Shown: one piece after another, positions 9,789 through 33,313 of the stretch | How the letters are laid out: every line of letters starts with the position of its first letter | How positions within the stretch are numbered: the stretch's first letter is position 1 | Notes under the pieces: model-generated | What the model saw: the letters and a program-made list of their open reading frames with translations, nothing else | Told to the model about the DNA's origin: nothing | Database searches by the model: none | Made by a program: the position numbers and the translations under genes | Source: Oscillospiraceae bacterium | GTDB lineage: Bacteria; Bacillota; Clostridia; Saccharofermentanales; Saccharofermentanaceae | NCBI GenBank assembly: GCA_015069215.1 | Contig: SVJC01000001.1 | Span: forward strand, 25,896 to 89,895 | Direction: 5' to 3' | Length of the DNA stretch: 64,000 bases

Positions 9789-10331
9789 TCATTCCATGTT
9801 CTGTCCGCAGAATTCGCAGACTCTGCTGGAGGAATTATTCTGTGAACCGCAATGGCTGCAATAACGGACTCCGGGGACCGCTCCTGCGGGATGCTGCGGC
9901 ACAAACGGTGAAGCAGGCTGTACCGGCCGGGCGCCTGCGGGCTGCTGCGGAGCAGACTGATACATATTGGGATTATACATGTACGCCGGCTGATTAGCAG
10001 GAACCTGCGCAGCATTCGGATTGACGTAATTGGGGGCACCGTAATTATTGTAGCCGGGCTTTGCGACCGGTTCAACGTAGCTGCCCTCAGGAATGAATCT
10101 CGCGACCAGGAATGAGATGAGTCCGCCAAATCCCGCACACGCAAGTCCGATAAACATCGATGCATAACGGTTGCCGTCGGTCATGATGTAAGCAGCAATA
10201 AGTCCTATGGTCTCAAATACTATCCACAAAACGATTGTAAGAGCAATGAACCCGCCGGGTCTTCTGCCTCTTGCGATGGCATTTCTCCTGTTCAGTCTGC
10301 ATAACGAAAAAACGGCAAAGAACTCAAGCAT
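9789..10331 (-). CDS. Membrane protein with P/Q/N-rich tail and C-terminal zinc ribbon
   Basis: Two TMs, a low-complexity PAGA/QP region and YCSHCGSQNNSSSRVCEFCG. Confidence 0.8.
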   Translation of the reverse strand: MLEFFAVFSLCRLNRRNAIARGRRPGGFIALTIVLWIVFETIGLIAAYIMTDGNRYASMFIGLACAGFGGLISFLVARFIPEGSYVEPVAKPGYNNYGAPNYVNPNAAQVPANQPAYMYNPNMYQSAPQQPAGARPVQPASPFVPQHPAGAVPGVRYCSHCGSQNNSSSRVCEFCGQNME

Positions 10332-15450: not shown

Positions 15451-15489
15451 ACCACATAGTATACGGTAAAAAGAAACAATTAATGCGGA

Positions 15490-19676: not shown

Positions 19677-19734
19677 TATTTCCTCCTCATCAGATCTCTC
19701 TATATATGTAAAGTATCTGATTAATTTTACTATT

Positions 19735-19755
19735 TACCTACCATTTCAGTAGGTA
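19735..19755. promoter_or_regulatory. Palindromic operator 1 (candidate Rrf2 site) at the iscS promoter
   Basis: Perfect TACCTAC-N7-GTAGGTA just downstream of the minus-strand promoter TTGACA(19789-19784)-17-CATATT(19766-19761). Confidence 0.65.
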
Positions 19756-19812
19756 CGAATAATATGAACCATGAGGCCCGTAATGTCAATGGAAAATTTT
19801 TAAAATCCGTGC

Positions 19813-19861
19813 TTGACAACAAATATGCACTCGTGTATATTACCTACTAACCGAGTGGGTT
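19813..19861 (+). promoter_or_regulatory. sigma-A promoter of leader-metY-cysK with overlapping operator 2
   Basis: TTGACA (19813-19818), 17 nt, TATATT (19836-19841), then TACCTAC-N7-GTGGGTT (19841-19861). Confidence 0.75.
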
Positions 19862-19890
19862 ATAGTGTTTTCAGGAAAGGAGGAGCCCCA

Positions 19891-20001
19891 ATGTTAGCAG
19901 CAATTCGCAATTCCATGTGCATGTGTATGATGCCTTGTTGGCGCACTGGGAATACCGAGTGCTTCTCTTGTCATATGGACGACCTGAGCATGCGAATGTG
20001 A
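19891..20001 (+). CDS. Met/Cys-rich leader peptide (36 aa)
   Basis: Very strong RBS AGGAAAGGAGG. Sequence MLAAIRNSMCMCMMPCWRTGNTECFSCHMDDLSMRM contains 8 Met and 5 Cys. It lies directly upstream of metY-cysK. Confidence 0.8.
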   Translation: MLAAIRNSMCMCMMPCWRTGNTECFSCHMDDLSMRM

Positions 20002-20028
20002 TACAGGATACGAAAATAAGATTATGGG

Positions 20029-20058
20029 AAGGGAGCGCTAAGGAAGGCTCCTTTTTTT
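20029..20058 (+). terminator. Attenuator terminator between leader peptide and metY
   Basis: AAGGGAGC-loop-GCTCCTTT followed by a T tract, 80 nt before the metY ATG. Confidence 0.75.
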
Positions 20059-20138
20059 ATTCAAAGATCACAACTTCCTTATCACCGTAAAACGGAAAAC
20101 AAAATCAAGATTTCATTTATCTAAAAGGAGATAACATT

Positions 20139-21425
20139 ATGAGCAACAAAAATTATAAATTCGAAACCCTTCAGCTTCACGTAGGCCAGGAACAGCCGGA
20201 TCCCGCAAGTGACGCAAGAGCAGTACCGATCTACGCAACAACATCTTACGTATTCCGTAATTCAGCACACGCTGAAGCACGTTTCGGACTTGCTGACGCA
20301 GGCAACATCTACGGCAGACTTACAAACTCCACACAGGGTGTTTTCGAAGACAGGATCGCAGCTCTCGAAGGCGGCGTAGCAGGTCTTGCAGTAGCATCAG
20401 GCGCAGCAGCGATCACATATGTAATCGAAGCTCTCGCAGTTAAGGGCGAGCACATCGTAGCACAGAAGACCATCTACGGCGGTTCCGAGAACCTCCTTGC
20501 ACACACACTTCCTCTTTATGGCATCGAGACAACATTCGTCAACATCCATGACCTTGAAGAAGTAAAAGCAGCCATCAGACCCAACACAAAGGCTCTCTAC
20601 ATCGAGACATTGGGCAACCCTTCTTCTGACATCCCGGATATCGAAGCACTCGCCAAGATCGCTCACGAAGCAGGCATCCCGCTCGTTATCGACAATACTT
20701 TCGGTACTCCTTACCTCATCAGACCTATCGAGTACGGTGCAGATATCGTAGTTCATTCCGCTACAAAGTTCATCGGCGGTCACGGCACGACATTGGGCGG
20801 CGTTATCGTTGATTCCGGTAAGTTCGACTGGGCTAAGTCAGGCAAGTATCCCTGGATCTCCGAACCCAACCCCAGCTATCACGGAGTTAAGTTCACAGAG
20901 GCAGCAGGCCCTGCAGCATTCGCAGTTTACATCAGAGCCATCCTGCTCCGTGACACCGGTTCTTCCATCTCGCCTTTCGCGGCATTCCTGCTCCTCCAGG
21001 GCACAGAGACACTTTCTCTCCGCGTAGAGCGTCACATCGAGAATACAAATAAGGTTCTTGTATACCTTAAGAATCATCCGAAGGTTGAGAAGGTCTTCCA
21101 CCCTGCACTCGAAGATCACCCCGATCACGAAGTATACAAGAAGTACTTCCCCAACGGCGGCGGCTCCATCTTCACATTCAACGTTAAGGGCGGAAAGAAG
21201 GAAGCATTCGATTTCATCGATCACCTCGAGATCTTCTCACTCCTCGCCAACGTAGCAGACGTTAAGAGCCTTGTAATCCACCCTGCAAGCACAACACACT
21301 CACAGCTTTCCGAAGAAGAGCTCAACGATGTTGGTATCTACCAGAACACGATCCGTCTCTCCATCGGAACAGAGCACATCGATGACATCATCGCTGACCT
21401 CGAAAAGGGTTTTGCAGCCATCTGA
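20139..21425 (+). CDS. metY: O-acetylhomoserine aminocarboxypropyltransferase / sulfhydrylase
   Basis: FETLQLHVGQE, PIY.TTSYVF, NIYGRL.N, VHSATKFIGGHG, LANVADVKSLVIHPASTTHSQL and IRLSIG.E. Confidence 0.93.
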   Translation: MSNKNYKFETLQLHVGQEQPDPASDARAVPIYATTSYVFRNSAHAEARFGLADAGNIYGRLTNSTQGVFEDRIAALEGGVAGLAVASGAAAITYVIEALAVKGEHIVAQKTIYGGSENLLAHTLPLYGIETTFVNIHDLEEVKAAIRPNTKALYIETLGNPSSDIPDIEALAKIAHEAGIPLVIDNTFGTPYLIRPIEYGADIVVHSATKFIGGHGTTLGGVIVDSGKFDWAKSGKYPWISEPNPSYHGVKFTEAAGPAAFAVYIRAILLRDTGSSISPFAAFLLLQGTETLSLRVERHIENTNKVLVYLKNHPKVEKVFHPALEDHPDHEVYKKYFPNGGGSIFTFNVKGGKKEAFDFIDHLEIFSLLANVADVKSLVIHPASTTHSQLSEEELNDVGIYQNTIRLSIGTEHIDDIIADLEKGFAAI

Positions 21426-21481
21426 ACATAATGGAAAATAACTGATATTATTAGTAAGAAAGAAATTGAAGGAGAATCACC

Positions 21482-22414
21482 ATGACTAAGATCTACACGT
21501 CAGCCGATCAGCTTATCGGAAAGACACCGCTTCTTGAACTCACACACGTTGAAAAGGAATTGGGCCTTGAGGCAAAGCTCGTTGCAAAGCTTGAGTACTT
21601 CAATCCCGCAGGAAGCGTTAAGGACCGTATTGCCAAGGCTATCATCGAGGACGCTGAGGCATCCGGAAGACTTAAGGAAGGCAGCGTCATCATCGAGCCT
21701 ACAAGCGGCAACACCGGTATCGGTCTTGCTTCCGTAGCTGCAGCTAAGGGTTACCGTTTGATCATCACAATGCCAGAGACGATGAGCGTTGAGAGAAGAC
21801 AGCTCATCAAAGCTTACGGTGCAGAGCTCGTTCTCACAGAAGGCGCTAAGGGCATGAAGGGTGCCATCGCAAAGGCCGAGGAGCTCCAGAAAGAGATCCC
21901 GAACAGCATCATTGCCGGCCAGTTCATCAACCCTGCAAATCCTAAGGCACACAGAGAAACGACAGGACCCGAGATCTGGGAAGACACAGACGGCGAAGTT
22001 GATATCTTCGTTGCAGGCGTAGGCACAGGCGGAACAGTCACAGGTGTCGGTGAATTCCTCAAGTCGAAGAAATCATCCGTAAAGGTCGTCGCAGTCGAGC
22101 CCGCTGACTCTCCCGTTTTGAGTAAGGGCACTGCAGGTGCACATAAGATCCAGGGTATCGGTGCCGGCTTCGTACCTGAAGTCCTCAACACAGGCGTTTA
22201 TGACGAAGTCATCCCCGTTACAAACGATGATGCATTCGCAACAGGCAAGCTCTTAGGTCATAGTGAAGGCGTACTTGTAGGTATCTCTTCCGGTGCAGCT
22301 CTCTGGGCAGCCATCGAGCTCGCTAAACGTCCCGAGAACAAGGGCAAGACGATCGTAGCGCTTCTCCCTGATACAGGCGACCGTTACCTCTCCACTCCTC
22401 TTTTCCAGGAATAA
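21482..22414 (+). CDS. cysK: Cysteine synthase A
   Basis: [45 protein letters not shown] and GISSGA. Confidence 0.95.
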
Positions 22415-22441
22415 ACCAGAAGCCAATTGGATTTCCAACAT

Positions 22442-22480
22442 AAAAGGGCCCTTGAAGCAGAAGCTTCAGGGGTCCTTTTC
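22442..22480 (+). terminator. Terminator after cysK (probably bidirectional)
   Basis: AAAAGGGCCCTTGAAGC-AGAA-GCTTCAGGGGTCCTTTT. Confidence 0.8.
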
Positions 22481-22489
22481 AGTTACGGT

Positions 22490-22700
22490 TTATCCTTCCC
22501 GCCTGTAGCTGCCGGGCGTCATTCCCGTTGTCTTGGCGAAATGCCGGTCTTACCTGGTTCATCAGCGGATTGTTCGCTCTCATCAGATACATCGTAAAGA
22601 CGAGAAGCGCCGGCTTCCTTGCACTTGCCTCTTATGGCAGGACCAGTGAATTAAAGGGCAAGGCAAAGGTTACCGCGATCACCGAAAAGGCCTCTTAATA
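22490..22700 (-). pseudogene. Degenerate remnant ending in an AraC-type C-terminus
   Basis: 22546-22490 translates as RHFAKTTGMTPGSYRREG*, the AraC F.K..G.TP..YR signature. The upstream hydrophobic stretch is in another frame and contains a stop. Confidence 0.5.
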
Positions 22701-22740
22701 CTACTACCGAACACATCTCCCCTAGATATACCCATCCCTC

Positions 22741-22773
22741 AAATAAGCACTTTCTTCGCGGAAGTGCTTATTT
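22741..22773. terminator. Perfect 12-bp inverted repeat insulating the kinase locus
   Basis: AAATAAGCACTT-tcttcgcgg-AAGTGCTTATTT. Confidence 0.55.
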
Positions 22774-22774
22774 A

Positions 22775-22950
22775 TTAAATGTCTATTAATTCTGTTAAAT
22801 TTGAGTTTTCTTTCCCCAAACAGGCACTCAAAAAGATTAGTATTAGTGTATATTCTGGCATGCTGCGAGAAGAAACCACATCCAGCCGGCTTTCTGCCAA
22901 ATAACATAGACGAAAGACAGTGTCACACAAGAAATAGGAAGGTGTTAGGA
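22775..22950 (+). promoter_or_regulatory. Conserved 5' leader of kinase 1 (copy 1)
   Basis: The ungapped 71-nt core (22775-22845) matches 26985-27055 at 59/71 by manual count. Stem TTTGAGT/ACTCAAA. Confidence 0.65.
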
Positions 22951-24771
22951 ATGGCAAACGAGAATAAAAGATTTCCGGATATCAGCGTAATCTGGCCAAA
23001 TTGGAAGATAACGGAAATTATCGGAAGGGGATCATTCGGTACCGTATATAAAGCTGTTCACGAAACCGCTGTAGTAGCTGGCGATGCCGCAGCTATAAAA
23101 GTAATCAGTATCCCAAATGAAGACAGCGAAACAGAAAACCGTAAGCTGGACGGGGCTTCCGAGGACGAGATCCGTAAAGAATACGAAGAGATCCGTGATG
23201 AATATGTTAACGAGATCAAATTCATGATGGATTTCAGAGACACCCCTAATGTCGTCAGGATCGAAGACTATGAGGTCGTTCCCAAAAAAGACAGCATCGG
23301 CTGGATCATATATATAAGGATGGAGTTACTGACCGATCTGAGGGTATGGGCAAACGAGCATGGTATTAACGCACATGATGTGATCCGGATCGGAAAAGAT
23401 ATCTGCCGTGCATTGATTACATGCGAAAAAAGGCATCTTTTGCACCGTGATATCAAGCAAAGCAATATCATGGTAAATACTACAACGAACACTTTTAAAC
23501 TTTCTGATTTCGGTATTGCAAAATACAACAATGCCCTTAATTGGAGCCTGTCTTTTAAAGGCACTCCCGATTACATGGCACCGGAAGTCTGTCAATTCAG
23601 TGAATATGACTCGCGGATAGATATCTATTCACTTGGTATGGTCTTGTATTATTACATGAACAAGAAACGTGGCCCGTTCCTTGTTCTAGACAGACTGCCT
23701 ACGGCTAATGAAAGAGAGAATGCCAACCAGAGGAGATATCAGGGCGAGCCTCTCCCTGCTCCTGCAGAAGCAGCACCTGCATTGTCCGAAGTAATACTCC
23801 ATGCCTGTGCGTACGATCCGAATGACCGTTTTCAGTCAGCTAAGGAATTCTACGATGCCCTGTGCCAGGTTGAAGCCGGAACATACAAGGTCGGCACTTA
23901 TGTTGCGTCAAATACAAATCTGCAGGTCGAGAATAAACTTCCGCAAGATGATTATGATTCCGGCACGGTAATGGTCCGACGTGCACCCGGCAGTTCTGTG
24001 CCGGAAATGTCTCAGGCACCTGTTTTTGTCCCGGCACAACCTGTTTCAAACGTGCAAAAGCCAATTACTGAAATGAAGAAAAAGAGATCTTCATTACCAG
24101 TCGTTATCATCGTGATTTTATTATTGATATCTGCTGCATGTGCAGTAGCGGTTTATCTGTTGCAAAACCATAAACCCATCAAAGAAAACAACAGCGAACG
24201 TATTACCGAAGAATCGGAATCTACCACGATAACAACTACAACTGCTACAACAACTACTACTGTTACACAGCCTGAAACAACAAGCCAGGCCACAACCGCC
24301 GAAAGCACTTATGAAACTTCTGGATCTGCACCTTTAGTTAATAAATTCTATGCATTCCCTGGCTGGTATGAGTTGGATAAGACTGTAGTAAAAAACAACA
24401 TGATTGCTGAAACTAGAAGCGATTATTGGTGGGAAAACGCTGACGGCACTAAAAATCCATATATATGGTTATATGTTTTCGATAAAGATGGTCACGCAAT
24501 TTGTGAATACTCTTGGCTTTGTTGTTCTAATGAGGCAAATGCAAAGGCAATGTATAACACTATCATGGGATATTCTTCCGATGAAGAAAAAAAAGATGTC
24601 TATTTAGACGGTAAATACATAGCGTTTAACAAACGCTACGCTGAATTAGATACTATTTTGAAAGTTGCTGGCTATAGTTCTTATGATCAAATTACCATGA
24701 AAGATGTTATTAGATATTTAGATGGATCTTTATGGGGGAAAGAACCTTCTGGCGAGATAGTATACAAATAA
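22951..24771 (+). CDS. Hanks-type Ser/Thr protein kinase with single TM, Thr-rich stalk and extracellular domain
   Basis: GRGSFGTVY, AIK, HRDIKQSN, DFG and GTPDYMAPE; TM PVVIIVILLLISAACAVAVYLL; TTTTATTTTT stalk. ATG 22951 follows an AGGAAGG RBS and aligns with the paralog start. Confidence 0.93.
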   Translation: MANENKRFPDISVIWPNWKITEIIGRGSFGTVYKAVHETAVVAGDAAAIKVISIPNEDSETENRKLDGASEDEIRKEYEEIRDEYVNEIKFMMDFRDTPNVVRIEDYEVVPKKDSIGWIIYIRMELLTDLRVWANEHGINAHDVIRIGKDICRALITCEKRHLLHRDIKQSNIMVNTTTNTFKLSDFGIAKYNNALNWSLSFKGTPDYMAPEVCQFSEYDSRIDIYSLGMVLYYYMNKKRGPFLVLDRLPTANERENANQRRYQGEPLPAPAEAAPALSEVILHACAYDPNDRFQSAKEFYDALCQVEAGTYKVGTYVASNTNLQVENKLPQDDYDSGTVMVRRAPGSSVPEMSQAPVFVPAQPVSNVQKPITEMKKKRSSLPVVIIVILLLISAACAVAVYLLQNHKPIKENNSERITEESESTTITTTTATTTTTVTQPETTSQATTAESTYETSGSAPLVNKFYAFPGWYELDKTVVKNNMIAETRSDYWWENADGTKNPYIWLYVFDKDGHAICEYSWLCCSNEANAKAMYNTIMGYSSDEEKKDVYLDGKYIAFNKRYAELDTILKVAGYSSYDQITMKDVIRYLDGSLWGKEPSGEIVYK

Positions 24772-24806
24772 GCCAAAGCTATAATTTTGTATAAGGAGAC
24801 GTAATT

Positions 24807-26393
24807 ATGCCTATCTGTACTTGGTGCGGTGAAAACAACGAAAACGAAGGACCTATCTGCGTAAAATGCGGAAATCCCCTGCCGGGTTCCCAGCCGTCAG
24901 TTCCGGATAATCAGAATGTTCTTGCCTGCCCAAAGTGCGGAACAAAATACGAAGCCGGTGATCAGTTCTGTACAAGATGCGGTAACACTTTAGATCTCCC
25001 CGTTCCGCCTGAAAGTAAACCTGATCCTGCACCGGCAGATCCCGCGCCGCTTGCTTGTCCAAAATGTGGTAAGGGTTACGAAAAGGGAGATAAGTTTTGC
25101 ACGAAATGCGGTACTTCTTTCGTTCAGCCTGCCAAACCGGTTCAGAACGTTTTTGTGCCCGCACCTGTACCTTCTCCGGCTCCTACCCGGGAACCCGAAC
25201 AGAAAAATATATGTCCGGAGTGCGGCGAGATCAATCCTAAGTCGTTGCGTTTTTGCGCAAATTGCGGCAGCTCGCTTGCCTCATCTGACAGTGTGTTTCA
25301 GAAAACTCAAAATCCGTTCAATAATCTCATAGTCACTCCGGCTCAGGCTCCGCGTCAGGCACAGACATCCGGACAGAAGAACATCTGCCCGACTTGCGGC
25401 GAGATCAATTCAACGAACAGTCATTACTGTGTAAAATGCGGCGGCACGCTCAATCCTGTTAACAAATCAGTAAATGCAACTCAGGTAGCCAGACGTCCGA
25501 CTCAGGCAGGCGTTGATCCTCTGACATTGCTGACGCATTATGACGGCCAGGAAAAGACCTTCAGTCTGGAAGGACACGAATTTACGATCTCAAAAGAAAT
25601 GGACGCATATGTCTATTACAGAAAGATGTTTAAGCAGGCCGCCAAGTTCATGGTTCAGCAAGTAATGCCTGAATATAATGCTCAGGTCCACAATTTGGAC
25701 GATTACTTTGCTAAATTTCCGATCATGTATGTACACTACAGAAGATTTTTGATCGATCAGGCTGTAAAGATCCTGATAAGCTACGATATCTACGACATCT
25801 CTCGCGAAGAATTCGAAGAAGAACTTGGCAACGAATTCAGCAAATGCAACGTAAAATACCAGGAACTCATCGAAGCATTCAATCAAACGATTGAGGATAA
25901 CCAGGCACGCGCAGCAATGCGTGGAAGTCTGTTGCCGACAGTCTTTTTCAGCGGCGGCGTTTTGGGATTTGCCAAGGCAATCGCTTATAATGCCGCTTCA
26001 ACAGCCATAGTTGAAGCAAGCATCAGAAATGCTAATGTAACCCGCGCGCAAAGAAATGAGCTTTTCAGAAGAATAACGCTCTCCGAATTGTTCGAAGATG
26101 TATTTCATGATTATTGGGATGTCCACTACTCGCTGACATACAGATTGCATGAAAGCGGTGCTGATGTATGGTATCCGAGCGTGGAAGGCAACACAAAGGC
26201 TCAGGGCCTTATGAGAAATCTCAACAGCAATCTTATTCCGGAAGACAGGATAGTCACCGTTCTTCTTAAGATATTTGAAACCCGTCCCATGCAGACCGGT
26301 TGTCTTGATTACGTGGTCAGGAAGTTTGGCCGTACCCCGGAAGTTAAGGCGATATGTGATTATTACGGATATGAAGCCGGAATCGGCAACTGA
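24807..26393 (+). CDS. Protein with five zinc-ribbon modules and an unknown helical C-terminal domain
   Basis: Five CxxCG-x(8-9)-CxxCG units separated by P/Q-rich linkers. The C-terminus contains FFSGGVLGFAKAIAYNAAS. Confidence 0.88.
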   Translation: MPICTWCGENNENEGPICVKCGNPLPGSQPSVPDNQNVLACPKCGTKYEAGDQFCTRCGNTLDLPVPPESKPDPAPADPAPLACPKCGKGYEKGDKFCTKCGTSFVQPAKPVQNVFVPAPVPSPAPTREPEQKNICPECGEINPKSLRFCANCGSSLASSDSVFQKTQNPFNNLIVTPAQAPRQAQTSGQKNICPTCGEINSTNSHYCVKCGGTLNPVNKSVNATQVARRPTQAGVDPLTLLTHYDGQEKTFSLEGHEFTISKEMDAYVYYRKMFKQAAKFMVQQVMPEYNAQVHNLDDYFAKFPIMYVHYRRFLIDQAVKILISYDIYDISREEFEEELGNEFSKCNVKYQELIEAFNQTIEDNQARAAMRGSLLPTVFFSGGVLGFAKAIAYNAASTAIVEASIRNANVTRAQRNELFRRITLSELFEDVFHDYWDVHYSLTYRLHESGADVWYPSVEGNTKAQGLMRNLNSNLIPEDRIVTVLLKIFETRPMQTGCLDYVVRKFGRTPEVKAICDYYGYEAGIGN

Positions 26394-26410
26394 TCAAAGG
26401 AAGTATTGAT

Positions 26411-26809
26411 ATGGATAACCGTTACTATCAGCAACCGCAATACACCCCTACTTACCAGCCACCGGATTACGGCCAGTTCGGAAATCCTACAAACCAGGTC
26501 TACAACAATCCTATGACCATGGCTGCCAGCGCTGCGGGTGACAGAAATACCCCTGAACTCAAAACGGCTCACATCTTTGCAATCATAAGCATGATATGCG
26601 GTATCGCCGGATTGGTACTTGCATTATATTACGGTCTTGGCGCCTTCATCGGCGGCGGACCGGGACTTGTATTTGCGATCATTTCGGGCAAACTCGGTAA
26701 TGCCAGCGGAATGAGAAAGACAGGATTGATCCTTTCGATCATATCGCTTGCATTAAGTGCCTTCGTATTTGCGCTGACTTATCTAATTTCGTCTGCATTC
26801 AGCTTTTAA
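26411..26809 (+). CDS. Small membrane protein with Q/P/Y/N-rich N-terminus (DUF4190-like architecture)
   Basis: YYQQPQYTPTYQPP tail, then AIISMICGIAGL...GLVFAIIS...GLILSIISL helices. Confidence 0.8.
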   Translation: MDNRYYQQPQYTPTYQPPDYGQFGNPTNQVYNNPMTMAASAAGDRNTPELKTAHIFAIISMICGIAGLVLALYYGLGAFIGGGPGLVFAIISGKLGNASGMRKTGLILSIISLALSAFVFALTYLISSAFSF

Positions 26810-26845
26810 TGATCTAATCATAAGCAACTGTTTGGAGGGCGTAAT

Positions 26846-26962
26846 ATAATCTATTGCAGAAAATGTGGCAAAAAGCTTGCTAATGATGCCATTGTCATTC
26901 TTTGTATCATTGCTCTTGTCTGTTTTGGCTGCGCGTTATTCATTTATCTCACATTCAGATAA
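26846..26962 (+). pseudogene. Decayed zinc-ribbon + TM mini-gene (ATA in place of ATG)
   Basis: GGAGG RBS (26834-26838), then ATA ATC TAT TGC... = IIYCRKCGKKLANDAIVILCIIALVCFGCALFIYLTFR*. It parallels MIYCNNCGKPLADG of 28884 but lacks the second CxxC. Confidence 0.65.
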
Positions 26963-26984
26963 AACCGGTTCCGCCCCAAAAATA

Positions 26985-27170
26985 TTAATTGTCTATTAAA
27001 TCTGTAAAATTTGGGTGATACCTCTCCAAACAGGCACCCAAAAAGATTAGAATTAACATACGTAACACCGATATTCCGGTACGATGCGAGGGGAAAACGC
27101 AAAGCGCCGGTTTTTCGCCGGATTACATTGGCAAAGACGGTGTTGCGCACGTTACAGGAAGGTGTAGAGA
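26985..27170 (+). promoter_or_regulatory. Conserved 5' leader of kinase 2 (copy 2)
   Basis: Homologous to 22775-22950. Stem TTTGGGTG/CACCCAAA shows a compensatory A-T to G-C change relative to copy 1. Confidence 0.65.
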
Positions 27171-28856
27171 ATGGCAGGCGAGAACAAAGATTTCCCGGAT
27201 ATCAGCGTAATCTGGCCAAACTGGAAGATTACGGAAAAGATCGGGGCAGGTTCATTCGGATTCGTATATAAAGCTGTGCATAAGACCGCAGTTATCGCCG
27301 GTGATGCCGTTGCCATTAAAGTCATCAACATTCCGAAAGAAGAAAGCGAAATAGCAAACCGTAAACTTGACGGAGCTACCGACGAAGAGATCCGCAGAGA
27401 ATTTGACGAGATCCGCACTGAATATGTCAATGAGATCCGTTTTATGATGGATTTCAGGGATTCTCCCAATGTTGCAAGGATCGAAGACTACGAAGTCGTT
27501 CCAAAAAAAGACAGTATCGGCTGGATCATATATATCCGCATGGAATTAATGACCGACTTAAGGTCATGGATAAACAACAACGGCTTTAATGAGCACATAG
27601 CGGTCAAGATCGGGAAAGACATCTGCGATGCTTTAAAGATATGCGAAAGCAAAAATGTATTGCACCGTGATATCAAGCCGAGCAATATCCTTGTAAACAC
27701 TTCTACGAACACGTTTAAGCTTTCTGATTTCGGTGTTGCCAAATACAATGACAGCCTAAGCGGAAGTCTGTCATCTAAAGGCACCCCTGATTTCATGGCG
27801 CCGGAAGTTGCCAGATTCCTCCATTACGATTCACGTATCGATACCTATTCCCTGGGCCTGGTCCTGTATTATTTCATGAACCGCAGGCATGGCCCTTTTC
27901 TCGATCTGAACAGGATGCCCACACCGACAGAAATGGAAGAGGCAAAACAGCGCAGGTTCAACGGCGAACTGATCCCGCCTCCAATTGATGCAGGACCTGC
28001 GTTGGCTGAAGTAATACTTCATGCCTGCGCCTATGACCCGAACGACCGTTTCCAGTCAGCTCAGGAATTCTACGACGCTCTGTGTAAGGTCGAAGCAAGA
28101 ACATACAGGATCGGGACTTATGTCCCGAAGAGACCTGCCGCAAATGCTATTCCTCAGCAGGAATATAATCCCGGGACGATCAGAGTCCGCCGCGCACAAG
28201 GCGCACCCGTACAGGGGCCGGCACAGGTCCCTACCTGGACTCCTGCCCAGACACCGGTTCCCGCGCCCGCACAGGTGCCTACATGGACTCCTGCCCGCGC
28301 TCCTGCACAGGTACCGACCTGGACACCGCCTCCGGTCCCTGCTCAAAACAAGCCTGTAAAGCCTGCAAAAAAGCCCAATAAGGCCGTTCTGCCGGTAGTG
28401 ATCGCGATAATCGCCGTTTTATTGGTTGCCGGATCGATCACATTGGCACTTGTTCTGGCTTCACAGTACAAAAAATCCGTCATGGAAAGCAGCGGTAACT
28501 CGACCGTAAGGACGACGTCTGTAAGATCGACAAAACGTACCGAATCCCAAGAAGAGGATACTGAACCGGATGCCATCGATAAGATCTATGAGATAGACTC
28601 CAGGTTCTGGGTTATAGTATTGTGCGCATCTTTCGTCGGCTTGGGCATAGTAATATTGACAGCTGTCGCTGTGACAAATAAGAAAAACAAGAAGCCGGTC
28701 CAAAAGAACGGCCCGAACAACAAGGCAAAACCTGCACAAAGCAAGCCGGCTCCTGCCCCGGCAGCCTCTAATCAGGTCATATTCTGCAAATACTGCGGGA
28801 ACAAGCAGGACGCATCATCTGCCTTTTGCGATAAGTGCGGAAAACAAATAAAATAG
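27171..28856 (+). CDS. Hanks-type Ser/Thr kinase with Pro-rich repeats, two TMs and C-terminal zinc ribbon
   Basis: GAGSFGFVY, HRDIKPSN, DFG and GTPDFMAPE; PAQVPTWT x3; two hydrophobic helices; FCKYCGNKQDASSAFCDKCG. Confidence 0.93.
   Translation: MAGENKDFPDISVIWPNWKITEKIGAGSFGFVYKAVHKTAVIAGDAVAIKVINIPKEESEIANRKLDGATDEEIRREFDEIRTEYVNEIRFMMDFRDSPNVARIEDYEVVPKKDSIGWIIYIRMELMTDLRSWINNNGFNEHIAVKIGKDICDALKICESKNVLHRDIKPSNILVNTSTNTFKLSDFGVAKYNDSLSGSLSSKGTPDFMAPEVARFLHYDSRIDTYSLGLVLYYFMNRRHGPFLDLNRMPTPTEMEEAKQRRFNGELIPPPIDAGPALAEVILHACAYDPNDRFQSAQEFYDALCKVEARTYRIGTYVPKRPAANAIPQQEYNPGTIRVRRAQGAPVQGPAQVPTWTPAQTPVPAPAQVPTWTPARAPAQVPTWTPPPVPAQNKPVKPAKKPNKAVLPVVIAIIAVLLVAGSITLALVLASQYKKSVMESSGNSTVRTTSVRSTKRTESQEEDTEPDAIDKIYEIDSRFWVIVLCASFVGLGIVILTAVAVTNKKNKKPVQKNGPNNKAKPAQSKPAPAPAASNQVIFCKYCGNKQDASSAFCDKCGKQIK
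28221..28330 (+). repeat. Three coding repeats GCACAGGTNCCNACNTGGAC (AQVPTWT)
   Basis: Copies start at 28221, 28269 and 28305. Confidence 0.85.
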
Positions 28857-28883
28857 ACATAATCTTTTTTTGGGGATCTTTAA

Positions 28884-29603
28884 ATGATATATTGCAATAA
28901 TTGCGGCAAGCCGCTCGCTGACGGTTCAATGTTCTGTGATGGCTGCGGAAGTCCGGTAGCGGGCCCGCAAAATGCGCCCATGGCTCCGAAGAGATCCAAA
29001 AAGGGACCGGTGATCGCCATCATCGCAAGCGCTGTCGGTCTGTCGCTCCTGGGCGGAGGTATCTTTGCGGCCATCAAGTTTGCAGGCAAAGCAAAGGCTC
29101 CCAAGGAAACTGAAGATGAGACCTATTCTTATACCGAAAGTACCGATGACACAGACGAAACCACTGAAACAACAGATGATATCTTAACCACGGACGAGGA
29201 AACGAGCGACACCACAAGCGAAACCACGACTGAAGAAACTGTCGAAAGTTCTATCGGAGAGACCGGCGATGGCGAGACCAAAACACTTGAAAAAGTCATC
29301 TCTCCTGAAGAGCTCCAGAGAACTATCGATAACATGAAGGATAGCGATACCTTCAGGAACAACTATAAAGATGCGACTATCGAAGTACGTGGAAACACCA
29401 TTACTTACAAGTATTACTACAACAAGGAAATGACCGAGGACCAGCGTGCACAGGTGAAGCAAAACCTCGAAGACAGCGGCCTTCGTGAACAGATCGACGG
29501 CATGAAGGATTCATTCGAAAAAATTTACGGGGTCCGTCCTGAAAGGATCGCTTTCGAATACTATACTGCTGACGACATCCTTATAGCCTGCATAGACGCT
29601 TAA
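28884..29603 (+). CDS. Zinc-ribbon + TM + acidic T/E/D stalk + extracellular domain protein
   Basis: MIYCNNCG...FCDGCG, TM PVIAIIASAVGLSLLGGGIFAAI and TDETTETTDD stalk. Confidence 0.88.
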   Translation: MIYCNNCGKPLADGSMFCDGCGSPVAGPQNAPMAPKRSKKGPVIAIIASAVGLSLLGGGIFAAIKFAGKAKAPKETEDETYSYTESTDDTDETTETTDDILTTDEETSDTTSETTTEETVESSIGETGDGETKTLEKVISPEELQRTIDNMKDSDTFRNNYKDATIEVRGNTITYKYYYNKEMTEDQRAQVKQNLEDSGLREQIDGMKDSFEKIYGVRPERIAFEYYTADDILIACIDA

Positions 29604-29652
29604 GGACCTTACCGTTCTTAATATTGCTGTTAACTGTTTCGGCGGTATCCCA

Positions 29653-30687
29653 TCAGGCAAGCTTCGTAACGTCAGTGGCGTAACACCATCTGCCGCCGGT
29701 AAAGTTTCCGAAGACGTATTTCGCAGACGCAGACTCGCACATTATGAGCATCTTGCCGTCAACGAAGACTATCTCCTCCGACATCGGCGGAGCCTTGAAT
29801 CCGCCTTCCAGCGTACTCTTGTACAAGACAAAGAGTTCTGCATTTCCTGCCTTGGGATCAAAGACTCCCGCACTCTTTCCGAAAACATCGTAGCAGGCGA
29901 TCGTGGACTTTTCTGTTCCGTAAGACATCGATATCCACATCTTGTTGTCGTGTATTACAACGCCCTGAGCCTTATCCGGCAATGAATAGACCTCTGAAGC
30001 GACGGTCTCCAGGCCGAACTTTGAAGTGTCCGAATCGCTTACCTCGTAGCTGAACATGAGAGCACGGTTCGTCTCGCCTGAAGGGCAATCGTATCTGTGC
30101 GAATCAGGCGTACGGAAGTTGGGTTCCCTGTAGTACTCGCCGACATAGAACTTGCCGTCAGAGAAGCACATGAAATCGGCACGGAGCTCGTAGTCACCGT
30201 ACTTTGTGTCAAAGGTTCCGAGGGTCTTTACTATCTGCGCGTTGCCTGCGGACAATACGTCAGAAAGCTTGAAAACATATACAAACGGATCCTCGTTGCC
30301 GCCTACATAGAGATAGTCTCCGTTGGCTGCGAGGCCACCCGCGTGGATCGCCATCCCTTTGCCGTCCTGATCTCCGAGAAGAACATAACCTCTTGTCTTC
30401 CCTGTTGCTTTTTCGATCATGTAGACACGTGAAGGCGTGCCGTTCTTCTGATAGCCTCCGACAAGATAGAGTCCCTCTGATTCAAGGTAATCAAGGCCCT
30501 GGGGGATCATTGTCTCCGAAAGTCCCGGTATCACGAACGCCTTTTCGGATGCCCGGTAATAAGATCTCACGGGGACCCTGAAAAAGAGCCTCGCTCCCGT
30601 AAGCACCAAAACTGCCAGCGCCACTAAACAAAAGGCGAAAGTTAAAAGCCCTTTCTTCAGTTTTGAAACGGACTTCTTCTCTGTCAT
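29653..30687 (-). CDS. Hypothetical membrane-anchored exported protein (possible beta-propeller)
   Basis: N-terminal TM and beta-rich repeats (QGLDY, HAGGLA, AQGVV, PPMSEEI). Start overlaps the mgtA stop region. Confidence 0.7.
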   Translation of the reverse strand: MTEKKSVSKLKKGLLTFAFCLVALAVLVLTGARLFFRVPVRSYYRASEKAFVIPGLSETMIPQGLDYLESEGLYLVGGYQKNGTPSRVYMIEKATGKTRGYVLLGDQDGKGMAIHAGGLAANGDYLYVGGNEDPFVYVFKLSDVLSAGNAQIVKTLGTFDTKYGDYELRADFMCFSDGKFYVGEYYREPNFRTPDSHRYDCPSGETNRALMFSYEVSDSDTSKFGLETVASEVYSLPDKAQGVVIHDNKMWISMSYGTEKSTIACYDVFGKSAGVFDPKAGNAELFVLYKSTLEGGFKAPPMSEEIVFVDGKMLIMCESASAKYVFGNFTGGRWCYATDVTKLA

Positions 30688-30688
30688 A

Positions 30689-33313
30689 TCAATACCAATC
30701 CTTGTGTCTCTTGATGTAGATGATCTTCATGATCTGGGCAAAGATCATGTAAACGACCATGAGGAGCGCGAGCCAGAGCATGTAGCTGATTGGCATCGCA
30801 GGCAGGCTGAAAAGCCTGGATACACCTGTAAATCCGATGATCAAAGTAACGGCGATTATCGCAAGAGTTGAGATCGAAAGCTGGATCGAAGCCCTGTCGT
30901 TGATGAACGGGAGCTTCGGCGTCCTGATCGTATGGATAACCATCGTCTGCGAGATAACGCCGAACATAAACCATCCGCACTGGAAGTAGCCGGCCATGTC
31001 GGGATTGTTATATCCGTATATGAACCAGAGAACAAGGAAGCACAGTACGTCAAGCACCGTACTTAAAAGTCCGAAAGACACCATGAATCCCTTGATGCCT
31101 CCGAGGTCCCATTTCTTGGGCTTTTCGATATACTTCGATTCAACATGGTCGAAAGGCATGCCGAGCTGGGCAAAATCGTTCAGGAGGTTCTGGACGAGGA
31201 TATGCACAGGAAGCATAGGCAGGAACGGCAGGAAGATGCTCGCGATAAGAACCGAGAACATGTTTCCGAAGTTACCGGAAACAGACATCTTAAGATACTT
31301 GGACATGTTTGCGAATGTGCTTCTGCCTTCAACAACGCCTTCATCGAGCACGTTGAGATCCTTTTCGAGAAGGATGATGTCAGCGACTTCCTTCGCGATA
31401 TCAACTGCGTTATCAACGGAGATTCCGATATCGGCCTGCTTGAGCGGCAAGCTGTCGTTGATGCCGTCACCCATGTATCCGACTATGTGACCCTTCGACT
31501 GGAACATCTTAACGACGCGCTGCTTCTGATATGGAGAGAGCTTTGAGAAGATATCGCAATGCTCGCAGGCTTCAGCAAGCTGCTCGTCACTCATCGCATC
31601 GATCTTCGCTCCCGTAAGAGTCATCTCAGTCCTGAAGCCGAGCCTGCCGCAGATGTTGATCGCAACGCCTTCGGAATCGCCCGTAAGAACGACCGTACGG
31701 ACGCCGTTCTTTCTCAATGCGTTGATGGCAGTTCCTGCGGACTCCTTCGGCGGGTCGAGGAAGCCAACGAATCCGATGAGGACCATGTCGCTCTCATCCT
31801 GAACGCCGAAAACATCAACGCCGTGAACATTGTTCTTCTGTGCAACGGCAATAACGCGGATGCCTTCAAGGTTATTCTCCTCGGCAAGCTTTTTCGCATT
31901 TGCGATGAGCTCGTCGGATATCTCTTTAACTTCGCCGTCGATCTCGATGAACGAGCAGATCGAAAGGATCTCTTCAACCGCGCCCTTCGTGATGAGCTGG
32001 CGCTTGCCGTTCTTGTCCTTTAACACGACGCTCATCCTGCGGCGCGAAAAGTCGAACGGGATCTCGTCTTCCCTGACATAAGCTTCCTTGAGGAACGATA
32101 GCTCCTCTTTCTCGGCACGGTTGATGATGGCAACGTCCATCAGGTTCTTAAGACCCGTTTGGAAGTAGCTGTTAAGGAATGCATGTCTTAGGATGCGCTT
32201 GTCCTCACGGCCCAGGACGTCCATATATTTTTCAAGTATGATCTCATCCTGCGTAAGCGTTCCGGTCTTGTCAGTGCAGAATACGTCCATCTCACCGAAC
32301 GTCTGGATGGCACCCAAACGCTTAACTATGGTCTTCTTGCGGGACATGTTGATAGCGCCTCTCGCAAGAGAAGAGTTCATGATGACCGGGAGCATCTCAG
32401 GCATGATTCCGACTGCGATCGTGATGCCGAACATCAGTGACTGGAGCCACGCACCCATGCCCTTGGTAAAGAAGTTTGCAATGAAAATAACAGGAACCGT
32501 TACCAGCATGAAACGGATCAGGAGCTTACTTACGGAATCGAGGTTCTTCTCGAATGCGCTCTTCTCCTCGAAAGAGTTGAGGCTCTTGGCCATGCTTCCG
32601 AAATATGTCTCCTCACCTGTCGTGAGTATGATCGCCTTGGCAGATCCCGAAACGATGTTGGATCCCATGAAGCCGATGTTTGCAAGATCGGTAACGCCGC
32701 AGTTTGTCTCAGACGTCGTGAATTTCTCGACAGGGTTGCTCTCGCCTGTAAGCTGCGACTGATCGATGAAGAGGTCCTTCGTCTCGATGAAACGCACGTC
32801 ACCAGGGATCATGTCACCTGAAGCAAGCTTTACGATATCACCCGGAACGAGTTCTTCGATCTCAACTTCCGTCTCAACGCCGTTTCTTAAGACGTCGAGC
32901 TTGTTTGTGATCATGCCCTGGAGCTTTTTGGCTGCGTTATTTGACTTCTCTTCCTGTACAAAAGAGATGACCGCAGAGATGATGATAACCGCAACGAGCA
33001 TTATGAAAGTTGCCAGCGAAGGCTCATCAGAAAGCACTACGTCGGTTACGAATGTTATGGCCGCTACAACCAGAAGCACTATGTTAAACGGGTTTATGAC
33101 CGCATCCTTGATCCTTACGGCAAGGCTTTTCTCCTTGCCGAAATCAATGATGTTCCTTCCGTACTCGTCCAGACGGTCAGCCGCCTGTATGGGGTCTAAG
33201 CCTTCCTCATCCGTCTGGTATTTTTCGAAAAGAGCCTTTTGATCCATGCCGCTTAATTCAAGCAGGATCTTCTCTACTTCACCGCGGCGCTCGTTAGGCT
33301 CTTTTTTCTTCAC
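30689..33313 (-). CDS. mgtA: Magnesium-translocating P-type ATPase
   Basis: TGES, PEMLP, DKTGTLT, DEIPFDFSRRRMSV, DPPKES, GDGIND, SGNFGN and MLPVHILVQNLL.D. Confidence 0.95.
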   Translation of the reverse strand: MKKKEPNERRGEVEKILLELSGMDQKALFEKYQTDEEGLDPIQAADRLDEYGRNIIDFGKEKSLAVRIKDAVINPFNIVLLVVAAITFVTDVVLSDEPSLATFIMLVAVIIISAVISFVQEEKSNNAAKKLQGMITNKLDVLRNGVETEVEIEELVPGDIVKLASGDMIPGDVRFIETKDLFIDQSQLTGESNPVEKFTTSETNCGVTDLANIGFMGSNIVSGSAKAIILTTGEETYFGSMAKSLNSFEEKSAFEKNLDSVSKLLIRFMLVTVPVIFIANFFTKGMGAWLQSLMFGITIAVGIMPEMLPVIMNSSLARGAINMSRKKTIVKRLGAIQTFGEMDVFCTDKTGTLTQDEIILEKYMDVLGREDKRILRHAFLNSYFQTGLKNLMDVAIINRAEKEELSFLKEAYVREDEIPFDFSRRRMSVVLKDKNGKRQLITKGAVEEILSICSFIEIDGEVKEISDELIANAKKLAEENNLEGIRVIAVAQKNNVHGVDVFGVQDESDMVLIGFVGFLDPPKESAGTAINALRKNGVRTVVLTGDSEGVAINICGRLGFRTEMTLTGAKIDAMSDEQLAEACEHCDIFSKLSPYQKQRVVKMFQSKGHIVGYMGDGINDSLPLKQADIGISVDNAVDIAKEVADIILLEKDLNVLDEGVVEGRSTFANMSKYLKMSVSGNFGNMFSVLIASIFLPFLPMLPVHILVQNLLNDFAQLGMPFDHVESKYIEKPKKWDLGGIKGFMVSFGLLSTVLDVLCFLVLWFIYGYNNPDMAGYFQCGWFMFGVISQTMVIHTIRTPKLPFINDRASIQLSISTLAIIAVTLIIGFTGVSRLFSLPAMPISYMLWLALLMVVYMIFAQIMKIIYIKRHKDWY

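Follow-up and report, generated by a model that had tools for sequence, protein, structure and literature searches.

What do two membrane Ser/Thr kinase genes do when they lie side by side, together with zinc-ribbon partner genes, in the genome of an uncultured member of the gut Clostridia? Hanks-type kinases are abundant in gut Clostridia and, to our knowledge, almost nothing is known about the signals that they sense there or the route by which a signal is passed on. We analysed a 64-kb stretch of DNA that carries such a locus (hereafter the window, to whose full length all positions refer), and found that the locus is real, strain-variable and built by duplication and domain shuffling. It probably represents receptor-type Hanks kinase signalling in a recombination-prone slot between housekeeping genes, in which the ribbons would serve as a cytoplasmic coupling handle.

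Two units, each with a leader, a kinase and ribbon or membrane partners as an earlier note on this DNA had described them, were found in the window: unit 1 runs leader 1–K1–Z5–M and unit 2 runs leader 2–K2–Z1 (Table 1). Intergenic gaps inside the units are 18–36 nt, and a terminator scan revealed no convincing terminator inside either one. The 5' border is marked by the remains of a transporter gene, of which window positions 22542–22698 are 78% identical to the final 157 nt (15333–15489) of a MatE gene that is intact in a relative, L007; just a 56-aa open reading frame is left in the window. A hairpin closes this relic, with leader 1 starting immediately 3' of it, and the same hairpin stands 5' of a K2-type leader in another relative, L008. 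Contig fragments of both units were recovered from seven independent gut or faecal metagenome runs, and two of these fragments span the junction between unit 1 and unit 2, so the locus is no assembly artefact; no deletion joints for unit 1 were detected among the metagenome contigs of those seven runs. Additionally, one RNA contig from a metatranscriptome matches K2 at 27578–27738 with 100% identity.

Table 1. Features of the kinase and zinc-ribbon locus, in window positions (nt) unless marked aa.
Feature	Position	Strand	Basis or remark
MatE relic, 3' end of transporter gene	22480..22700	+	directly 3' of cysK terminator
Terminator hairpin, AAGCACTT..AAGTGCTT then T-run	22745..22776	+	read from sequence
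Leader 1, AT-rich promoter/operator-like box and ~145-nt 5' UTR	22770..22950	+	leader alignments
K1, chimeric receptor Ser/Thr kinase, 606 aa	22951..24771	+	Pkinase 130.8 bits, motifs intact
K1 parts	kinase aa 1-320; TVMVRRA aa 339-345; TM helix aa 384-402		Thr-rich linker follows
K1 orphan alpha/beta ectodomain	aa 457-606, nt 24319-24768	+	family HMM, AF2
Z5, 528 aa	24807..26393	+	DZR 95.6, Zn_Ribbon_1 84.2 bits
M, small membrane protein, 132 aa	26411..26809	+	homologs in L009, L012; TM prediction
Z' relic, third module gene	26846..26962	+	sequence; translation IYCRKCGKKLANDAIVILCIIALVCFGCALFIYLTFR
Leader 2, same promoter/operator-like box (26983-27015) and 5' UTR	26978..27170	+	leader alignments
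K2, ancestral kinase, 561 aa	27171..28856	+	Pkinase 133 bits
K2 parts	TM1 aa 409-427		kinase domain, TIRVRRA motif and PAQVPTWTP repeats; TM1; ~50-aa outside loop
K2 parts, C-terminal	TM2 aa 481-499; zinc ribbon aa 539-556 (nt 28785-28838)		basic linker between TM2 and cytoplasmic ribbon
Z1, 239 aa	28884..29603	+	Zn_Ribbon_1 30.1 bits; TM prediction

Both kinases score well above the Pfam Pkinase cut-off of 31.7 bits, and their catalytic motifs are intact (GRGSFG, AAIK, EYVNEI, HRDIKQSN, SDFG and MAPE in K1; GAGSFG, VAIK, HRDIKPSN, SDFG and MAPE in K2), so that, judged by their motifs, K1 and K2 are active-looking Hanks-type kinases; their nearest solved structures are PknB, Stk1 and StkP. The two are close paralogs, as had been proposed, with 57% identity over 484 aa. 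The count of 49 identical residues in the first 60 was confirmed and extends without gaps to 235 of 320 (heads ~73–74% identical), and the two blocks quoted as identical were found at aa 104 and aa 280 in both kinases. The earlier note also held the proteins to be unrelated after GT..VRRA.G, which is not the case: homology resumes past a Pro-rich linker of variable length with a basic stretch and the TM helix (KK..LPVVI..), and divergence begins only outside the membrane. By predicted topology, the swapped portion is thus the extracellular parts only. The supposed breakpoint itself is a family motif, TxxVRxA, present in 104 of the best 120 of more than 1,400 family members, whose tails are very varied and which are further characterized by an N-terminal WP.W motif, an insertion of ~30 aa between beta3 and alphaC, and ribbon fusions or ribbon-bearing neighbours.

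The K1 tail had been described as AT-rich, and codon usage bears this out: GC3 of the ectodomain is 0.293, compared with 0.469 in the K1 head and 0.534 in the K2 head, and as a third-position measure it does not reflect amino-acid composition alone. A word-index search with this tail found nothing; an exhaustive HMMER search of 1.84 billion representative proteins yielded seven relatives, all of them ribbon–TM–ectodomain or lipoprotein–ectodomain proteins and none a kinase (0/7). An HMM of this ectodomain family also matches the third genes (Z') of the ribbon modules in L009 and L012 (E = 1e-10 and 2e-9). Because the relatives of the tail sit on ribbon–TM or lipoprotein anchors, the family HMM matches Z' genes and GC3 drops to 0.29, K1 is a chimera of a family kinase head and TM helix with an ectodomain of a very rare family, and the suggestion that receptor tails are exchangeable holds in the sense that this ectodomain is otherwise anchored by a ribbon–TM segment or a lipoprotein signal. 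The AF2 model of the ectodomain reached a pLDDT of 86.5, and Foldseek found nothing significant for it in the PDB (best E = 5e-3, TM 0.26). Circular permutation of a single module may also have split one gene into the K1 ectodomain and the Z' relic; the gene order fits, but GC3 differs (0.29 in the ectodomain, 0.45–0.50 in Z5 and M).

The remainder of unit 1 is explained by a three-gene module, Z–M–Z', that we recovered from other loci. Z5 starts 36 nt past K1 and comprises five ribbons joined by Pro-rich linkers (aa 1–215), followed by an all-helical domain of ~290 aa with a moderately hydrophobic segment (aa 375–402) and no strong TM helix. Just nine homologs of this C-domain were found, all of them one-ribbon proteins. 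Its profile had no match in the PDB, the AF2 model of Z5 has a pLDDT of 75.9, and the best Foldseek PDB match, to AhlB/ClyA-type toxins (E = 0.34, TM 0.15), is not significant and in our view not meaningful. M, the middle gene, has a Gln/Pro/Tyr-rich N-terminus and two to three TM helices, and is 49% identical to a 132-aa protein of L009 and 45% identical to a 120-aa protein of L012, each encoded 3' of a Z homolog. The broken half ribbon of the earlier note is the third gene, in the position of the 221- and 224-aa ribbon–TM–ectodomain genes of L009 and L012: its ribosome-binding site GGAGGG is kept (26834–26839), ATA replaces ATG, a TM-like stretch follows the first CxxC without a gap, the second CxxC is lost, and there is a stop at 26960. 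Homologs of the Z5 C-domain precede M homologs and Z' genes in other loci, which identifies Z5, M and the broken ribbon as what is left of such a module.

The tally of seven complete ribbons was exact: Z5 has five, K2 carries one at its C-terminus and Z1 one at its N-terminus, and every one of them has the spacing C-x2-C-G-x9-[F/I/Y]-C-x2-C-G. Just two more were detected elsewhere in the window (~57 kb), on two unrelated proteins, so this clustering is not due to chance. Z5 and Z1 exceed the gathering scores (27.3 bits for DZR, PF12773; 25 bits for Zn_Ribbon_1, PF13240) and are predicted to bind zinc, and the K2 ribbon scores 19 bits with Zn_Ribbon_1, below the cut-off of 25, yet has the same CX2CGX9FCX2CG spacing. 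Z1, the conserved partner of K2, lies 28 nt 3' of it; its product has an N-terminal ribbon and a single TM helix, and an acidic linker rich in Ser/Thr leads to an ectodomain of ~110 aa. Z1 proteins of relatives are 68% and 97% identical, and a metagenome scan gave no relatives of the ectodomain, with matches at the level of the ribbon only. The two products of unit 2 are complementary in layout: K2 has almost no ectodomain, a membrane hairpin and a cytoplasmic C4 ribbon end, and Z1 has its ectodomain outside and a matching ribbon inside.

Comparison with relatives showed that unit 2 is the older part of the locus. Kinase–Z1 adjacency is kept in L004, L005, L006 and L008, and K2 is 97% identical to the L008 kinase (P0004) and 77% identical to the L004 kinase (P0003) over its full length including the ribbon. 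Over the heads, K2 and the L004 kinase are 88% identical, and K1 is 72–76% identical to either of them. The ~180 nt 5' of both start codons are conserved, confirming the shared leader of the earlier note, and the duplicated DNA (22775–23903 and 26985–28123) is 74.7% identical. Relatives have only one leader, and leader 2 is its ortholog: in L004 and L006, alignment to the window sets in at position 26978, directly 3' of their own cysK terminator. Leader–K2–Z1, which relatives have on its own, is the ancestral unit, and unit 1 (K1–Z5–M) is a lineage-specific extra of 4.5 kb that was added upstream.

The leader box, which in leader 1 (22773–22805) contains three TATTAA-like 7-mers spaced about 11 nt apart (period 10 and 2.9 copies by TRF), is also conserved 5' of a PP2C gene in L007. 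The leader 1 ribosome-binding site is AGGAAGGTG; an open reading frame from TTG 22801 is leader read-through, and the real K1 start is ATG 22951. A permissive Rfam search of 19000–31000 gave no match to a known riboswitch or leader RNA, and RNAalifold on four leaders (effectively three sequences) gave weak energy with a covariation term of -1.5, so we do not claim an RNA structure. In a scan for sigma-70 promoters and terminators, the number of sites did not exceed that in shuffled sequence, and the conserved box was not called as a promoter.

The claim that the locus is modular and polymorphic is well supported, as relatives differ in which kinase cassette occupies the slot flanked by cysK and the 344-aa/P-type ATPase genes: a single K2-type kinase with Z1; a PP2C, a TPR-tailed kinase, an AraC gene and MatE in L007; and the two-unit form described here. 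Turnover extends to very close relatives, with L008, 97% identical to the window, missing unit 1. Pfam detected no PASTA, FHA or PP2C domain in the proteins of the locus, as previously noted, and tblastn found no other kinase or PP2C in the 64 kb. The absence of a nearby PP2C stands for the window but not for the slot: in L007, a PP2C gene immediately precedes the syntenic kinase and follows the same promoter/operator-like box that the leaders contain. More distant family members occur in operons of PP2C, kinase, ribbon protein(s) and FHA–ABC transporter, often with ribbons fused to the kinase.

From this architecture, we suggest that the ectodomains may sense a surface or environmental cue, with K1 carrying its own ectodomain and Z1 supplying that of K2. 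Signal-dependent clustering would activate the kinases by trans-autophosphorylation, and the phosphorylated TxxV motif could then dock FHA proteins encoded elsewhere. The cytoplasmic ribbons would act as a protein–protein handle by which ribbon-bearing membrane proteins are recruited to the kinase, be it as co-sensors, as scaffolds or as substrates, and the five-ribbon array of Z5 would make it multivalent. The dephosphorylating PP2C, found at this locus in relatives, would have to be encoded elsewhere in this genome. The earlier proposal that the ribbons are cytoplasmic adaptors or substrates of the kinases is plausible, as kinases of this family recurrently have ribbons fused to them or encoded beside them; Z1 would be a poor substrate candidate, since its cytoplasmic part is only ~40 aa long and has no Thr.

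The link between ribbon and kinase could have another explanation. It is possible, if somewhat unlikely, that proximity is coincidental, with ordinary receptor kinases lying in a variable region beside Z5, M and Z1 as independent envelope proteins like TcaA or Llmg_0524–0526, in which the ribbon does no more than stabilize or orient the protein at its cytoplasmic end. Work in Lactococcus lactis favours such a structural role of the zinc module (PMC4628341), and same-format ribbons occur on the two unrelated proteins elsewhere in the window. The Z–M–Z' module stands without a kinase in all three of the other contexts seen (L009, L010 and L012), and a metagenome scan of ten generic ribbon loci found no kinase, so Z5 and M may be passengers. 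Against coincidence, the kinase–Z1 pair is conserved in relatives with a gap of 25–33 nt, and kinases of other lineages with just 42–48% identity have ribbon proteins as immediate neighbours. Terminal ribbons were also fused to the kinase itself in 11 of the best 120 of more than 1,400 family members, at either terminus and always on the cytoplasmic side. A contig scan with a generic kinase pattern gave 15 family loci out of 80 among the matches listed, the other loci serving as controls; ribbons lay in or beside the kinase in four of these 15 unbiased loci and nowhere else in those loci, and about 70% of the family loci among the matches listed had no ribbon at all. The resulting enrichment is rough (P = 0.004–0.02 with a conservative background) and draws on few independent lineages. 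Operons of PP2C, kinase, ribbon protein(s) and FHA–FHA–ABC were found in L013 and L103, and ribbon–TM proteins with a ribbon-tailed kinase in L018; across the partner proteins of these three loci, the ribbon is the only shared part.

A more far-reaching possibility, which we consider quite unlikely, is that the cytoplasmic CX2CX10CX2C ribbon is a dedicated docking currency of this large Clostridial kinase family, by which ribbon–TM ectodomains plug into kinases as split, combinatorial receptors. The ribbon–TM sensors would then be Z1, Z' and the partners in L013, L018 and L103, the kinases would be ribbon-bearing or ribbon-binding, K1 would be a natural fusion of a sensor/kinase pair, and Z5 would be a multivalent clustering scaffold. 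If true, it would mean that bacterial Ser/Thr kinase signalling can be wired in a new way.

Phage-triggered defence, which the earlier note had left as an option, is very improbable as the function of the locus. A kinase like Stk2, PD-T4-6 or MAD6 would sense infection and phosphorylate many targets to abort it, and the PADLOC models mad6, PD-T4-6 and Stk2 do match both kinases in a locus that is strain-variable. However, these matches cover the generic catalytic domain only (the Stk2 model reaches 46 bits over ~110 residues of K2 only), the curated NCBIfam cut-offs are missed by a wide distance (94–99 bits against 460 for MAD6 and 30–45 against 990 for PglW), and the partner proteins have no PADLOC match above noise. 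The flanks are housekeeping genes for Fe–S, cysteine and ion-transport functions, syntenic and related operons carry the PP2C and FHA–ABC partners typical of signalling, and a TM helix with an ectodomain is receptor-like. That unit 1 is a decaying duplicate heading for loss with no function of its own is hardly credible: relics lie on both sides of it (the MatE 3' end and the broken Z') and L008 lacks it, but K1, Z5 and M are full-length with catalytic and zinc-binding motifs intact, the K1 head is 74% identical to that of K2 and free of frameshifts despite 25% nucleotide divergence, and identical unit-1 fragments occur in seven metagenomes.

Receptor-type signalling in a recombination-prone slot thus remains our preferred reading. 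The locus presents a natural domain swap, in that one rare ectodomain is carried by a zinc-ribbon anchor elsewhere and by the kinase itself in K1, and it connects to an uncharacterized operon type of PP2C, kinase, ribbon protein(s) and FHA–ABC transporter. If ribbons couple sensors to kinases, a very large class of membrane proteins, the "zinc-ribbon domain-containing" ones with TcaA relatives among them, would gain a function; if they do not, the locus is a clear and ordinary case of cassette turnover in a receptor-kinase slot.

Among known systems, the nearest group with solved structures is the PASTA kinases (Mycobacterium tuberculosis PknB, Bacillus subtilis PrkC, Staphylococcus aureus Stk1 and Streptococcus pneumoniae StkP), which share with this locus a Hanks domain, a juxtamembrane region bearing Thr sites, one TM helix and a sensor outside the membrane, as well as an upstream PP2C gene, here in related operons. 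Unlike them, K1 and K2 have no PASTA repeats by Pfam and score 122.9 and 117.6 bits with NF033483 against a cut-off of 450, and the WP.W motif, beta3/alphaC insertion, TxxVRxA motif and ribbons are features of their own family. CX2CX10CX2C membrane proteins of L. lactis bind zinc and affect cell-wall integrity (PMC4628341), and TcaA of S. aureus, with the same ribbon–TM–outside topology, acts on the envelope (PMC10328498). Llmg_0524–0525–0526 and TcaA resemble the partner proteins in their N-terminal cytoplasmic CX2CX10CX2C module, TM helix(es) and extracellular part, and the Lactococcus genes, two ribbon proteins with a short gene between, repeat the Z–M–Z' order, a likeness of motif spacing and layout. 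The TcaA family model NF053815 gives 19.4 bits against a cut-off of 550 and covers the ribbon only, so the likeness is one of topology alone; no kinase has been described with those genes, and Z5 has five ribbons and a novel helical domain. Mycobacterial PknG likewise combines a Cys4 metal-binding knuckle module with a Hanks kinase in one polypeptide (PMC8546545), and TPR tails like that of PknG occur in this family too, for example in the L007 kinase. PknG differs in being a soluble kinase whose rubredoxin-like module packs beside the catalytic core, whereas the K2 ribbon is far C-terminal, past two TM helices; K1 and K2 have no TPR, and the Pfam family of the Cys4 module is a different one. 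From the defence kinases Stk2, PD-T4-6, MADS MAD6 and BREX PglW, the locus is set apart by scores short of the thresholds, partners without a defence signature, housekeeping context and receptor topology, and what it has in common with them is the Hanks catalytic domain.

We found that this locus is a site of receptor-kinase cassette turnover combined with a recurrent, uncharacterised zinc-ribbon association and two orphan domains. Five genes on the + strand are flanked on one side by a cysK-like gene (21482-22414) and on the other by a convergently oriented 344-aa gene (29653-30687), which is followed by a P-type ATPase gene. They form two units: leader 1, the kinase K1, the zinc-ribbon protein Z5 and the small membrane protein M make up unit 1, and leader 2, the kinase K2 and the zinc-ribbon protein Z1 make up unit 2, with gaps of 18-36 nt between the genes within each. 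Fragments of both units, including the unit 1/unit 2 junction, were present in seven independent metagenomes (faecal, bovine or sheep gut), and an exact 161-nt piece of K2 was present in one metatranscriptome. The 344-aa protein, encoded on the - strand, has an N-terminal TM helix and no match in Pfam, NCBIfam or PADLOC; its gene adjoins the P-type ATPase in all relatives and is present as two ORFs in one Clostridiales MAG (L004, L005, L006).

Genes of the two kinase units (window positions)
Gene	Positions	Strand	Product length
K1	22951-24771	+	606 aa
Z5	24807-26393	+	528 aa
M	26411-26809	+	132 aa
K2	27171-28856	+	561 aa
Z1	28884-29603	+	239 aa

Both kinases are of the Hanks type (Pkinase scores of 131 bits for K1 and 133 bits for K2), with all catalytic motifs intact and PknB, Stk1 and StkP as the closest solved structures (E about 1e-19). 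The observation made in the earlier note was borne out as a whole, including its count of 49 identical residues in the N-terminal 60, which is exact, and the two blocks it quoted, which are identical between K1 and K2 and occupy the same positions in each. The duplicated DNA, 74.7% identical, takes in a common leader of ~180 nt and reaches ~950 nt into each kinase gene. In K1, the kinase domain is followed by TVMVRRA, a Pro-rich linker, a basic stretch and a TM helix (aa 384-402), beyond which a Thr-rich linker leads to an ectodomain of 150 aa. K2 continues from its kinase domain with TIRVRRA, PAQVPTWTP repeats, TM1 (409-427), an outside loop of ~50 aa and TM2 (481-499), and ends in a ribbon joined through a basic linker. 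This two-TM layout therefore predicts a cytoplasmic location for both termini; the ectodomain of K2 is nearly absent. The two proteins had also been described as unrelated after VRRA.G, which is too strong: similarity picks up again at the basic stretch and TM helix, so exchange was limited to the extracellular part. Linker lengths are polymorphic in these kinases. In metagenome run X7, an insertion of 9 nt, AACAACTAC, adds three Thr codons to the K1 Thr-rich linker at window 24230, and the K2 linker (28260-28338) is a PAQVPTWTP-like 36-nt repeat in 2.2 copies, longer in the L004 ortholog.

The wider family comprises more than 1,400 relatives at E below 1e-20, from Clostridia, with NPCBM, TPR, LRR, M23 or ribbon modules as tails. 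A juxtamembrane TxxVRxA motif, located at window 23965-23985 in K1 and at the equivalent site in K2, was detected in 104 of the 120 best family members and was frequently doubled, 13 residues apart; no description of it was found in the literature searched. FHA domains classically prefer a (phospho-)Thr with a hydrophobic residue at +3, and because TxxVRxA fits this preference, we read it as a putative autophosphorylation and FHA-docking site.

Relatives reveal how the slot between cysK and the ATPase was filled. In the Clostridiales MAG, whose flanks are about 82% identical to the window at the nucleotide level, the cysK terminator is followed by a leader, a single K2-type kinase, a Z1 homolog, the 344-aa gene and the ATPase, and this kinase is 77% identical to K2 over its full length, two TM helices and ribbon included. 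A second relative, L008, matches the window at 97% identity from 26983 on; there, a MatE 3' end and terminator abut the K2-type leader, so unit 1 is absent. In a third, L007 (flanks about 84% identical), an AT-rich box and a PP2C gene precede an 874-aa kinase with a TPR tail, after which come AraC and MatE genes. The window keeps a relic of such an L007-type MatE 3' end at 22542-22698, and since MatE is intact downstream of the kinase in L007, the gene order of the slot was rearranged, not just expanded. The MatE 3'-end relic (22480-22700) is fused to the cysK terminator. Together, these comparisons identify K2 and Z1 as the orthologous unit, and 22480-26978 (MatE relic, leader 1, K1, Z5, M and a broken ribbon) is an extra of about 4.5 kb. 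Over its head, K1 shares 72-76% identity with K2 and with the L004 kinase, versus 88% between the latter two; K1 either branched before those species split or was imported from a relative. The AT-rich box occurs at 22773-22805 and 26983-27015 (9086-9143 in L007). It contains three TATTAA-like 7-mers spaced by about 11 nt and is nearly invariant between species; most relatives have it ahead of the kinase, L007 ahead of the PP2C gene. It resembles a promoter plus an operator for a direct-repeat-binding regulator; a sigma-70 consensus scan did not call it as a promoter.

Unit 1 is itself composite. A word-index search found no homolog of the K1 tail, and just seven of 1.84 billion representative proteins are related to it. 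These are ribbon-TM-ectodomain proteins (P0131, P0133) or lipoproteins (P0132, P0134, P0135) and include no kinases. Nine proteins of 320-343 aa, with one ribbon apiece, are homologous to the Z5 C-domain. In two of the three contexts examined (L009 and L012), such a Z gene is followed by an M homolog (45-49% identical) and then by a 221/224-aa ribbon-TM-ectodomain gene, Z', together a Z-M-Z' module; the third (L010/L011) has only the Z homolog, followed by a Na/H antiporter gene, and none of the three contexts has a kinase near the Z homolog. An HMM of the K1-ectodomain family matches the third genes of L009 and L012 with E of 1e-10 and 2e-9, for a notional database of one million sequences. 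The broken ribbon (26846-26962) lies exactly at the expected place of the third module gene, with its ribosome-binding site kept, ATA for ATG, and the second CxxC lost. From the K1-tail family, the module gene order and this broken ribbon, it follows that unit 1 consists of a kinase head fused to a Z'-type ectodomain, followed by Z, M and a Z' stump. K1 is thus chimeric, and a second module lies within unit 1.

Third-codon-position GC (GC3) bears out the earlier impression of an AT-richer K1 tail, at 0.29 in the ectodomain versus 0.47 in the head and 0.45-0.50 in Z5 and M; the tail is therefore a foreign or later graft, and Z-M-Z' modules of other genomes are likewise low in GC3. There are hints that the module may travel on mobile DNA. 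The L009 module has a GC3 of 0.21-0.27 versus a locus GC of 0.42, and in L009 8001-12353 Z-M-Z' is followed, within ~450 nt, by a small ORF and the gene of a large serine recombinase. AF2 models of the K1 ectodomain (pLDDT 86.5, confident) and the Z5 domain (75.9, moderate) had no significant match in the PDB. The Z5 C-domain (25509-26390) is all-helical with a moderately hydrophobic, poorly predicted central segment; it has no match in Pfam or PDB, and its best Foldseek matches, ClyA/AhlB-type alpha-pore-forming toxins, are not significant.

All seven ribbons of the locus share one format, C-x2-C-G-x9-[F/I/Y]-C-x2-C-G, and the other 57 kb of the window hold only two more, which sets the background at about 2 ribbon genes in every ~50. 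These two, at 9789-10331 (-) and 51858-52535 (-), are C-terminal ribbons of the locus format on unrelated proteins, one with 2 TM helices and a tail rich in Pro, Gln and Asn, the other soluble, 225 aa long and containing a coiled-coil-like stretch. Z1 runs from a ribbon through one TM helix and an acidic Ser/Thr linker to an ectodomain of ~110 aa; Z5 carries five ribbons on Pro-rich linkers and a helical domain of ~290 aa, with no clear TM helix, and M has 2-3 TM helices.

The ribbon is the sole feature common to the kinases' partner proteins, and relatives keep the kinase next to Z1. Terminal ribbons are fused to 11 of the 120 best family members (nine N-terminal, two C-terminal), and in 4 of 15 family loci from species-representative genomes ribbons occur within or directly beside the kinase and nowhere else in about 215 kb, compared with 12 ribbons in 814 kb of 65 unrelated kinase loci. 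Against a conservative 4% background, a rough estimate of the enrichment gives P = 0.004 for the fusions and P = 0.02 for the neighbours. However, ribbons are absent from about 70% of family loci, both the Z-M-Z' module and generic ribbon proteins are found without kinases, and the Z1 cytoplasmic segment lacks Thr. Ribbon-rich arrangements include L018, where two ribbon-TM proteins precede a soluble kinase with two C-terminal ribbons; L103 (PP2C, ribbon-kinase, ribbon protein, FHA-FHA-ABC); and L013, a Lachnospiraceae MAG (three-ribbon protein, PP2C, kinase, ribbon-TM protein, ribbon-multi-TM protein, FHA-FHA-ABC transporter). A conserved operon type occurs in distant family members (L013 6557-14214; L103 5216-11930): an optional multi-ribbon protein comes first, then PP2C, kinase and ribbon protein(s), and last an ABC transporter whose N-terminus bears two FHA domains. 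The window locus looks like a reduced version of this PP2C-kinase-ribbon-FHA-ABC operon.

With the architecture, history and recurrent ribbon-kinase association established, we suggest that K1 may sense through its own ectodomain and that Z1 may be a co-sensor for the ectodomain-less K2 via cytoplasmic ribbons. Clustering would activate the kinases, the phosphorylated TxxV motif would recruit FHA proteins, and a PP2C encoded elsewhere in the genome would act on the system; the five ribbons of Z5 could scaffold several partners. The interpretation in the earlier note survives in part: modular kinase cassette turnover is supported, whereas its phage-defence option is not, as K1 and K2 do not match defence kinase families.

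Among known systems, the locus belongs with those of Hanks receptor kinases, though not with the PASTA type. A Cys4 module on a Hanks kinase has a precedent in PknG (PMC8546545), though with a layout unlike that of the window kinases. The closest characterised ribbon proteins are Llmg_0524/0526 of L. lactis, which have the CX2CX10CX2C motif, bind zinc, have a cell-wall phenotype and are encoded in an operon that has a short gene in the middle (PMC4628341), and S. aureus TcaA, which acts on wall teichoic acid and has one TM helix between its intracellular zinc finger and its large ectodomain (PMC10328498); the likeness of both to the window proteins is limited to motif and topology.
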